From: a virus
Lineage: Duplodnaviria; Heunggongvirae; Uroviricota; Caudoviricetes
IMG/VR virus record: IMGVR_UViG_2663763286_000023
Direction: 5' to 3' (one strand)
Length of the DNA: 8,018 nt
Below the pieces are notes generated by a model, which was not told the origin of the DNA, made no database searches, and saw nothing but the letters and a program-made list of their open reading frames with translations. Position 1 is the first letter of the stretch. Each line of letters starts with the position of its first letter. Positions 3,981 through 6,702 of the stretch are shown here, piece after piece. The translations under genes and the position numbers were made by a program.

Positions 3981-5690
3981 TTGGCAGACAATAAAATCAC
4001 GCTATCCTCGGTCAGGAAGGCGCTGGCGGGGGTTTTTAAAGACAACGGAGAACGGGACAACATCCTCCTGTCCGCGCTGGCTGTGCACGGCGGAAGTGGG
4101 TATTTGTTTTCTCGCGCAGGGGCACCGGTACAACTGTCCGGCTTCTTAGGCGGCAAACCGGGCGATAGTGGCATGGCTGGCGATGGGCTGGTGGACGGAA
4201 GTCGCTTTATCTTTGATGAAGTTCAACTGCCGGAAGACCGCTTGCAACGCTATCCTCTACTCGAAGAGATGGCGGTTTACAGCACGATCGCCACCGCGCT
4301 GAACATCCATATTACGCACGCGCTCTCTTTCGATAAGAAGACCGGACAAACCTTCTCTATCGTGCCGGTACATAACGGAAATGATAATGACTATGACGCC
4401 GCGCAGGCGTTGTGTGACGAGCTGATGAACGACATCGGGCGAACCATCAACAAAGAGGTCGCCGGGTGGGCATTTATCATGTCTGTATTTGGGGTGGCTT
4501 ATGTCAGGCCATACGCCAAAGAAGGCATAGGGATCACGTCTTTTGAGTGCTCCTATTACACCCTTCCGGGCTTCATCAAAGAGTTCGAGGTCAGCGGCAA
4601 CCTGGCGGGATTTAGCGGCGATTATCTGAAGGACGCGTCAGGGAAAATGGTTTTCGCCGATCCGTGGGCCATTATCCCTATGAAAATCCCCTACTGGCGG
4701 CCTAAGTCAAACCTTATGCCTGTGCACACTGGCCATAAGGCTTACAGCCTGCTGGATAATCCGGAAGAGCGCACGCCGATTGAAACCCAGAATTACGGGA
4801 CCAGCTTGCTCGAATACGCCTACGAGCCGTACATGAACCTGCGTTCGGCGATCCGCTCGCTGAAGGCAACGCGTTTTAATGCGTCGAAAATTGACCGAAT
4901 CATCGGTCTGGCGATGAATAGTCTGGATCCGGTAAAAGCAGCCGATTATTCACGCACCATTACTCAGACGCTTAAACGAGCAGCTGACCTGATGGAAAAG
5001 CGCGCACGCGGCGCGAATAACATGCCTACGGTGACCAATACCCTGCTGCCTATTATGGGCGACGGCAAGGGACAGATGACTATTGATACTCAGACCATCC
5101 AGGCTGACATCAACGGCATTGAAGACATTCTCACCTATATGCGCCAGCTGGCGGCAGCACTTGGCCTCGATTACACCCTCCTGGGGTGGGCAGATCAAAT
5201 GTCCGGCGGGCTTGGTGAAGGTGGATTCCTGCGCACGGCAATTCAGGCCGCCATGCGCGCCTCATGGATCCAGCAGGGCGTAGAAGAGTTCATTCAGCGG
5301 GCTATCGATATTCATCTTGCTTTCAAGTACGGCAAGGTATACCCGGAAGGTGATCGCCCGTACAAAATCGAATTCCACTCCGTTAATACCGCTCTGCAAC
5401 AAGAGCACAACGACAACCGCGACTCGCAGGCGAACTACGCCACCATCGTTACGCAAATCCTCGATGCCGTCAGCAATAACAGCGTCCTCGCCAATTCCGA
5501 TGCATTCAAACGTTACCTGTTCAGCGATGTGCTGGAGATTGACGAAAAAATCTCTGAAGCACTGGTGAACGAACTGAAAGCGAAAAGCGAGGACGACGAT
5601 CACCTGATGGATTCCATCATCAAAACACCGCCACAGGAACTGGCGCAAATCCTTGAATCGGTCTTTAAAGAGGGAAACGATAATGACTGA
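3981..5690 (+). CDS. Phage portal protein, lambda gpB-like family, 569 aa, TTG start
   Basis: TTG at 3981 with AAGGTG (3970-3975) 5 nt upstream. N-terminal HGGSGY...QLSGF resembles lambda gp[31 protein letters not shown]...AAMRASW resembles gpB LRYIAAGLGVSYEQL...ARASANESW. Acidic C-terminus. About 53 percent G+C. The gpB comparison is from memory. Confidence 0.7.
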
Positions 5691-6702
5691 TGTTTTGAAA
5701 ACGGTCACTGACCGCTTTTGTCTCTATAGCAATGCTCGAAAAGGTCGCCAGAACGGGCGACAGTATGTATTAAGCGCGGTAAAGACCATGCTTGAAAGCA
5801 AGGAAACTCAGGAAGGTTTACGCCTTGGTGAGCTTTTCGGCTATTACGGTCACGGTCGCCGACAGCTGACCGGCAAACTGGAAGTACCAGAAACCAGCGT
5901 GATCATGGTGGAAGGTCGCCCGGTCGTAATCGACAATGTTCCAGCGTGCCGCACAGTGGCTATATCTGTTGACGACAACGGCATCGTTACCCATACACAG
6001 GAAATTCTTAACACAGAGCCGGGTAAAATTGTCGCCGCGATGATCGAAAGCCGAGCTGGTGGCTGGAGCTGGGACACTGGCGGGCGTGAGTCCGGGAAAA
6101 TCGCTGTAACCACCAGCTTCCATGGTGTGGATTATGTGACAACGCCGAACTATATCAGTCTGGATCATCCTGCCAGCGCCGGAATGTTTGAAAGCGCGGA
6201 TTCTAAATCTCTACTGGCAGAGTCCCTGGCGGCGCATGGGTACTCCGACGAGTCAGTGCAGGCAGTTATATCCCATTACGGCAAAATGGCTGAACTGGAA
6301 ATGATGGTGGAGGCGACAGAGCGTACGGCAGAACTGGAAACCGCACTACTCGAAAGCCAGGGCCGCCACCTCGAAGCAATGGCCAAGATCGCAGATGCTG
6401 AAGCGCGAATCGCTTTGCTGGAGCAAACAGCGGGTATCCGCGATGATGTGCTGGCAGCGATGCAAGACGAACTGGATAACCTCCCAATCTTCGTCTCCGC
6501 CGCCCAAAAAGACGCATTCCGCCTCAAAGAACCTGGTGATGCAAAAATCGTTGCCACACTTTTCGAATCTCTGATCAAAGTTGGCGCACGCAACTTGCCT
6601 GTCACCAAGAAACTTAAGGAAGTTCCGCAAGCGGCTAACGTCCAGGCACCGCGTGAGACAAGCATCATCACGTTTAATAATTCAATCAATCCGTTTAATT
6701 GA
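5683..6702 (+). CDS. Putative head scaffolding or prohead-protease protein, 339 aa, with an Ala/Glu/Leu-rich predicted coiled-coil C-terminal third; translationally coupled to the portal gene
   Basis: ATG at 5683 overlaps the portal stop (ATGACTGA, 8-bp overlap) and is preceded by AGAGGGA. The C-terminal region [46 protein letters not shown] is typical of scaffold coiled coils. A weak DHPASAG resemblance to the P2 gpO DDPASLG region is from memory only. The first in-frame ATG at 5653 lacks a ribosome-binding site. Confidence 0.6.

Follow-up and report, generated by a model that had tools for sequence, protein, structure and literature searches.

The pro Gene and Its Boundaries

The stretch of DNA analyzed here (the window, 8018 nt, Caudoviricetes record IMGVR_UViG_2663763286_000023) carries on its plus strand a gene that an initial annotation, made from the letters alone, had described as the second gene of an operon, encoding a globular N-terminal domain of unclear type fused to a long coiled coil. 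It is pro of a P1-like plasmid prophage and very probably encodes the essential head-maturation protease; its two principal features are the following:

5683 to 6702, plus strand: pro, head-processing (prohead maturation) protease gene, 339 amino acids (aa)
5683 to 6198, plus strand: protease domain, residues 1–172, beta-rich, with a predicted T4 gp21/assemblin fold

The reading frame is real and extends from the start ATG 5683 to the stop TGA at 6700–6702, which gives 339 aa. The mechanical list of open reading frames (ORFs) begins it at TTG 5653, and the PHROG profile alignment begins at residue 11 of that longer frame, which is ATG 5683, the same start as in the pro annotation of P1. A Shine-Dalgarno sequence (GAGGGA) lies about 9 nt 5′ of this ATG, which overlaps the stop codon of the preceding gene, prt, by 8 nt (ATGACTGA). 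By tblastn, the window protein shares 99.1% identity with P1 Pro (AF234172/NC_005856) and about 98–99% with the proteins of P7 and related phages. It differs from P1 Pro by four substitutions only (D131A, Q248K, L311I, and N339K), D131 being a variant of the window at a position that is A in P1 Pro and in the family consensus. Additionally, it matches phrog_1801 over its full length (E 9.5e-183), and a search of 5.8 billion proteins yielded 157 homologs from P1-like elements of Enterobacterales, Xenorhabdus, Photobacterium and others, the named ones among them being nearly all called ‘head processing protein’. When a profile of the N-terminal domain was searched exhaustively, 335 cluster representatives were recovered at E ≤ 1e-3; the family of this domain thus comprises at least 335 clusters at 50% identity, and it includes shorter members of about 200–215 aa. 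In a CRISPR interference (CRISPRi) screen pro was found to be essential, its knock-down abolishing plaque formation (efficiency of plating <3.4e-6). Both this essentiality and the relation of Pro to T4 gp21 are already published, and what is reported here is in that respect the rediscovery of a named and characterized gene.

Predicted Fold of the N-terminal Domain

An AlphaFold2 model of Pro was built on an alignment of 48 homologs; its mean predicted local distance difference test score (pLDDT) is 79 and rises to about 87–96 in the beta-rich N-terminal domain over residues 31–150. In a Foldseek comparison of this model with the PDB, the top two matches were chains A and B of 5jbl, the structure of T4 gp21 (probabilities of 1.00 and 0.99), and the same program found 73 matches at E ≤ 1e-3 among the predicted viral structures of BFVD. 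The named matches are ‘prohead core protein serine protease’, ‘prohead core scaffolding protein and protease’, ‘Peptidase U9, T4 prohead protease’, ‘phage head maturation protease’ and a Mu gpI-like entry, with one capsid-protein entry as the sole exception. According to the predicted model and the structural search, the domain shares the three-dimensional fold of gp21 and fits an assemblin-like beta-barrel in which Ser is the nucleophile and His the general base. The N-terminal ~170 residues are predicted to form a protease fold of the T4 gp21/herpesvirus-assemblin type, and structure prediction settles the type of the modeled domain as that of a T4-type serine prohead protease in a diverged, gp21-like form. 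This link had already been published for P1 Pro, which matches 5JBL_A in HHpred at a probability of 99.44% and is listed as ‘prohead protease’ (Gonzales et al., 2022, Supplementary Table S4, PMC9024508).

The domain that the initial annotation had left unclear can be named from the model, as it already had been for P1, and being a diverged gp21-like protease that is in print it is not atypical in kind. The idea of a prohead protease fused to an extension was right, the predicted protease fold being followed by a helical extension, and so was the remark that the domain does not look like an S49/ClpP-type protease: S49 gave no Pfam match at E ≤ 0.1, and no ClpP or crotonase fold appeared in the structural searches. 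The faint likeness to P2 gpO that had been seen around DDPASLG found no profile support, and a gpO-like protease was rejected. Neither Phage_GPO nor the S49, S78 and U35 peptidase families matched in Pfam even at E ≤ 0.1. The proposed alternative of a different effector domain is excluded, and an effector domain of non-phage type was rejected.

Some database names would make Pro a tail fiber protein. This is how phrog_1801 is described, and the same product name is borne in RefSeq by the genes of P1, P7, D6, SJ46, and RCS47 (NC_005856, NC_050152, NC_050154, NC_031129, NC_042128). The assignment is scarcely credible: no tail-fiber fold or repeat is found, the fold is that of a prohead protease, pro is co-transcribed with the portal gene, and the tail fiber of P1 is protein S (PMC9024508). 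The label is refuted by the predicted fold together with the literature and looks like a propagated error, as does ‘nucleoside triphosphate pyrophosphohydrolase family protein’, the name given to pro in the annotation of one E. coli plasmid.

Predicted Catalytic Residues

Two motifs singled out by the initial annotation are correctly placed at residues 53–58 (GYYGHG) and 126–134 (GGWSWDTGG), and a third at residues 158–170. The first two are predicted to hold, respectively, the catalytic histidine and serine of a prohead protease of the T4 type, and three codons mark the putative triad:

5851 to 5853, plus strand: His57 codon (GYYGH), predicted catalytic histidine, aligned with H85 of T4 gp21
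6067 to 6069, plus strand: Ser129 codon (GGWSW), predicted nucleophile, aligned with S140 of T4 gp21 in GVSS
6130 to 6132, plus strand: Asp150 codon (G-V-D-Y-V), predicted third residue of the triad, aligned with D168 of gp21 in G-V-D-A-V

H57, S129, and D150 are invariant among the 48 homologs, down to 37% identity, and at least 90% conserved among 68 representatives, down to about 21% identity. The gp21 family has a His-Ser-Asp triad (PMC5694885); the T4 numbering used here was taken from the T4 gp21 sequence together with that statement. In a profile–profile alignment with the gp21 family (a shallow alignment of 120 members), 139 columns fall in register and pair H57 with H85, S129 with S140 and D150 with D168, as well as R60 with R88 and P155 with P173, at a probability of 3.8% and E 0.011. 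An hhalign comparison of the Pro domain profile with the single T4 gp21 sequence gave a meaningless result.

The original P1 record offers a different function in its note on the pro coding sequence (NC_005856), ‘head processing, putative kinase/phosphatase probably involved in activation of host protease’, by which Pro would be a regulator that activates a protease of the host without being one itself. The peptidase family models, none of which matches Pro, could be cited in its favor; the predicted fold and triad contradict it, and we consider it very improbable.

Several points weigh against the reading of Pro as a gp21-type protease. Apart from coiled-coil noise, Pro has no match in Pfam at E ≤ 0.1, it has none in NCBIfam, a profile of the 48 homologs found no PDB chain by sequence, and none of 68 diverse family members matches a Pfam peptidase family. 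The alignment with the gp21 family is statistically weak at the values given above, the residue correspondence being one of fold and local motif agreement, and the spatial closeness of H57, S129, and D150 is putative. Moreover, ‘predicted prohead protease’ is the wording of the P1 papers, and no assay of purified Pro is reported in them (PMC9024508, PMC12810830). With regard to classification, PF03420 matches neither Pro at E ≤ 0.1 nor the 68 family members at E ≤ 0.01, and T4 gp21 itself scores 372 bits against it; Pro therefore lies outside Pfam Peptidase_S77 (PF03420) as currently defined and belongs only to the wider structural clan.

Pro-like domains were also encountered in larger proteins. 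Three proteins of about 830–850 aa (P0217, P0229, and P0235) start with such a domain, in which the segment of the catalytic His is missing (GYFEK in place of GYYGH, with ~25 residues deleted), GGWSWA and GLDY are kept and the end reads SMFE↓AAPA (here and below the arrow marks an actual or possible scissile bond); a DdrB-like ParB domain (PF18763) follows. In the Pfam scan, a ddrB-ParB domain was carried by 2 of the 68 family members. The Pro-like part of the three proteins may be a module, derived from a protease, that targets an internal head protein to the capsid.

The Helical C-terminal Half

The remainder of Pro is divided as follows:

6247 to 6477, plus strand: long Ala/Glu/Leu-rich alpha-helix, residues 189–265, a single helix in the AlphaFold2 model (pLDDT 72–90) and a possible coiled-coil or oligomerization element
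6478 to 6600, plus strand: conserved C-terminal segment, residues 266–306 (LPxF...Q..A...D....LFES....LP), candidate capsid-interior targeting or binding region
6592 to 6699, plus strand: disordered, poorly conserved tail, residues 304–339, pLDDT below 50 and variable in the alignment

Residues 176–260 contain 20% Ala, 14% Glu, and 13% Leu, and the model shows one continuous helix of 77 residues (189–265) followed by two short ones (273–278 and 286–301). In the alignment of 48 homologs, conservation reaches at least 90% at P268, Q275, A278, D286, E295, S296, and L305, while P306 does not vary at all. The initial annotation had seen a classic heptad coiled coil in the C-terminal third; its composition and helical nature stood, but the helix occupies the middle-to-late part of the protein and shows no single register along its length beyond that expected from composition. 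By a crude test, a/d occupancy over the 77 residues is 0.64, compared with 0.60 ± 0.05 in shuffled sequences (P = 0.39); a consistent heptad register is seen at about 232–287 only, and Pfam returned weak coiled-coil noise only for the helix region. A coiled coil in the modeled helix is plausible. An in-frame internal start with a Shine-Dalgarno sequence, as for a nested scaffold gene of the lambda Nu3 or herpesvirus UL26.5 kind, was also looked for and nothing convincing was found at M168, M202, M207, M208, M233, or M260.

By analogy with HK97 gp4, SPN3US gp245 and herpesvirus UL26, the helical half would most likely target Pro to the inside of the procapsid and oligomerize it there, and residues 266–306 are the best candidate for the element that binds the capsid interior. 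We also infer a possible scaffold role for the helical part. This competes with the published account, in which the first 120 residues of gp23, the capsid protein, have the scaffold role in P1 (PMC9024508, PMC12810830), and that account speaks against it.

Taken further, Pro could serve chiefly as a scaffold or as a core protein, its protease-derived domain being catalytically secondary, and its essential role would then be a structural one, to nucleate or size the procapsid on the portal. A long helix with a conserved C-terminal segment indeed makes up half of Pro, a separate scaffold gene is not known in P1, related BFVD entries bear the name ‘prohead core scaffolding protein and protease’, and the His-less Pro-like domains fused to DdrB-like proteins indicate that the fold can serve non-catalytic roles. 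On the other hand, the putative triad is invariant in the 48 homologs and nearly so in the 68 distant ones, the family has shorter members of about 200–215 aa, and published models see the scaffold in the N-terminus of gp23 and in DarA (PMC12810830), so that we hold this possibility to be quite unlikely and retain Pro as the head-maturation protease.

Head Maturation and a Recurring Cleavage Motif

In P1, the first 120 residues of gp23 are removed by a cut at E120↓S121 (AMLE↓SVAA) for which Pro was named as the likely enzyme, and Pro itself was detected in virions by 3 peptides only, with 9.7% coverage (PMC9024508). According to a 2026 cryo-electron microscopy (cryo-EM) paper, the N-termini of gp23 and DarA are removed by Pro, P1 has no separate scaffold protein and residues 1–69 of DarA are invisible (PMC12810830). 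The context of the gp23 site (NKAMLE↓SVAA) was verified in the sequence, and it has the same form as a motif of Pro, M-(L/F)-E↓S. The gp23 site is also conserved in Cronobacter phage JK004 (AMLE↓SVSK) and phage D6 (AMFE↓SVAQ), alongside the Pro sites of these phages. In the P1 ORFs of at least 100 aa, which amount to 19,707 residues from 60 kb of the genome, [ML][LFI]ES occurs 11 times: five copies are in Pro (positions 36, 120, 168, 222, and 293), two in the gp23 propeptide and one in DdrB. Given the background rate, five copies in Pro have a binomial P of about 1e-7. The copies at 168–171 and 293–296 are invariant across the P1 clade and the other three are less conserved; the former two correspond to these sites:

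6184 to 6195, plus strand: M-F-E170↓S171, predicted ‘release’ site for self-cleavage where the protease domain ends, E170 and S171 being invariant in 48 homologs and M-x-E-S across the P1 clade
6559 to 6570, plus strand: L-F-E295↓S296, second site of predicted self-cleavage, preceding the tail, [ML][LF]ES being present in all 48 P1-clade homologs

The recurrence of M-(L/F)-E↓S is a modest new observation of this analysis. We infer that Pro may be Glu-specific like gp21, and the two invariant copies suggest self-release and self-destruction of Pro. It should be considered to the contrary that the self-cleavage sites are predicted by analogy with the gp23 site and that the motifs at 36–39 and 120–123 lie inside the folded domain.

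These elements can be arranged in a possible order of events. The pro gene is transcribed late from LPpro, jointly with the portal gene prt, and Pro would be co-assembled into the procapsid via its helical C-terminal half (helix 189–265, segment 266–306 and the flexible tail). It would then act as a Glu-specific Ser-His-Asp protease that removes the scaffolding-like N-terminal region of gp23 and the targeting peptides of the internal Dar proteins, and that cuts itself at the M-(L/F)-E↓S motifs. Cuts at E170↓S171 and E295↓S296 would come first, freeing the catalytic domain and detaching the tail, and the three less conserved copies would serve the subsequent degradation of the protein; such self-degradation would explain the low abundance of Pro in virions. 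A more specific proposal, which we put forward as possible but rather doubtful, is that the C-terminal half of Pro is an unrecognized internal scaffold or targeting module of P1-like heads with a herpesvirus-like self-processing at two sites, a ‘release’ site (MFE170↓S171) and a ‘maturation’ site (LFE295↓S296). If this were true, the shared signature would predict DdrB, Prt and DarA as further substrates.

Signatures of the gp23 type were observed in other head proteins as well. The internal head protein DdrB contains GGLFE441↓SVSG (OP279344), and Prt contains ILE559↓S ten residues from its C-terminus (AQILE↓SVFK in the Prt of the window). DarA has a related signature, LLE68↓A69, that adjoins the first residue visible by cryo-EM. 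The three sites are candidates for additional Pro substrates.

The prt-pro Operon and the Surrounding Window

Three further features delimit the operon:

3920 to 3938, plus strand: LPpro, late promoter of prt-pro, dependent on Lpa, −22 box AAGTGACTA, −10 TAAATT
3981 to 5690, plus strand: prt, portal protein, 569 aa, first operon gene (phrog_1497, E 1e-261; annotated Prt in P1)
6748 to 6773, plus strand: intrinsic-terminator-like hairpin GGCGGCC-GAAA-GGCCGCC with a T-run, operon end

LPpro is an exact 19-nt match to the feature at 17251–17269 of P1 NC_005856, upstream of prt. With this promoter in place, pro directly 3′ of prt and a hairpin with a T-run after pro, the description of pro as the second gene of an operon is borne out. 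A gpB-like portal upstream of it, as had been supposed, is not, the portal resembling T4 gp20 more than that of lambda: the only Pfam hint for Prt is a weak match to Portal_T4 below threshold (E 0.006), and in the P1 literature the portal is modeled on T4 gp20 (PMC9024508). The prt-pro arrangement is also found in plasmid NZ_CP077553 and phage D6. The gene neighborhoods of distant homologs, on a metagenome contig of 4.9 kb and in the phages Rb1 of Xanthomonas and ABMM1 of Acinetobacter, were uninformative and showed no adjacent portal or capsid gene. Positions 3763–6738 of the window are collinear with P1 17093–20068 at 98.2% identity, and the entire window is collinear with the E. coli plasmid NZ_CP077553 at 98.6%. 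The segment 3900–6800 was found in 495 E. coli records, 499 of its 512 places being on plasmids.

The gene ant, convergent to pro, has a hairpin of its own on the minus strand (6734–6715). Two G+C hairpins with T-runs, one per strand, thus stand back to back at 6715–6773 between pro and ant and look like a pair of convergent terminators.

The ends of the window (1–339 and 7680–8018) are identical, a 300-nt exact repeat being reported at a spacing of 7679, and each consists of the 5′ part of the ant (KilAC antirepressor) gene and part of icd. NZ_CP077553 also has this ~7.7-kb segment between two icd-ant modules, which are only ~93% identical to each other, whereas the window ends are identical; the window could therefore be a circularized or collapsed assembly, or a recombination product of the two icd-ant copies.

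Upstream of prt, at 3706–3980, a deletion has removed ulx and darB, antirestriction genes that occupy about 6.6 kb in P1. P1 10391–10453 thereby abuts P1 17093 onward, and only a ~140-nt remnant of the darB 5′ end is left, which related plasmids annotate as an ‘N-6 DNA methylase’ pseudogene with a frameshift. A low-GC (30–36%) gene pair at 1722–3382, between mat and lxc, takes the place that the EcoPI res-mod genes have in P1; its minus-strand gene encodes an EAL-domain protein (PF00563) and its plus-strand gene a regulator of the AraC type (PF12833). In OP279344, a P1 isolate in which res/mod is deleted, two unnamed genes are found in the same position, the likeness being one of size, orientation, and position alone.

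Significance

As a discovery the gene itself carries little weight: it is the pro gene known from P1, already established as essential, and its kinship with T4 gp21 is in print. Pfam and NCBIfam have no model for the Pro family; if one were curated, with H57, S129, and D150 marked, hundreds of annotations in plasmid prophages would be put right. From the M-(L/F)-E↓S signature, the sites at which Pro may process itself and its substrates can be predicted in a cheap and testable way, and such predictions are relevant to P1 capsids for protein delivery.

Comparison With Known Systems

The nearest of the known enzymes, T4 gp21 (MEROPS S77, PF03420, PDB 5JBL), shares only 16–17% identity with Pro and has 212 aa, compared with the 339 aa of Pro with its helical extension of ~170 residues. 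T4 also has separate scaffold proteins (gp22, gp67, and gp68), whereas none is recognized in P1, and P1 pro lies far from the capsid gene. The herpesvirus assemblin (UL26-type precursor, MEROPS S21) has a Ser-His-His triad and cuts Ala↓Ser. Pro differs from it by an Asp as the predicted third residue, by an apparent Glu↓Ser specificity and by a self-cleavage that is predicted; unlike in UL26-type genes, no start of a nested scaffold gene is evident in pro. With P2 gpO, lambda C/Nu3 and Mu gpI, Pro has in common the concept of a single reading frame that joins a protease at the N-terminus to a helical scaffold at the C-terminus. A Mu gpI-like entry is among its structural matches in BFVD, while lambda C is S49/ClpP-like and P2 gpO has its own Pfam family, Phage_GPO, and neither was detected in Pro.

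Diverged gp21-like H-S-D proteases that are found only by profile methods have been described in giant phages (phiKZ gp175 and SPN3US gp245), where a C-terminal propeptide, removed autocatalytically, is needed for incorporation into the prohead (PMC7411985, PMC5694885). The heads of these phages are much larger in architecture, and their likeness to Pro is one of descriptions. HK97 gp4 (Peptidase_S78/U35) belongs to the same structural clan as Pro, in which no S78 or U35 match was found in Pfam, and the HHpred alignment of the HK97 type is at the level of secondary structure only, over Pro residues 89–198 (PMC9024508). As far as the work of Duda et al. (2013) is cited in PMC9024508, the C-terminal part of the gp4 protease would serve encapsidation. 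P1 further resembles HK97 in that an N-terminal propeptide of the capsid protein is the presumed scaffold.

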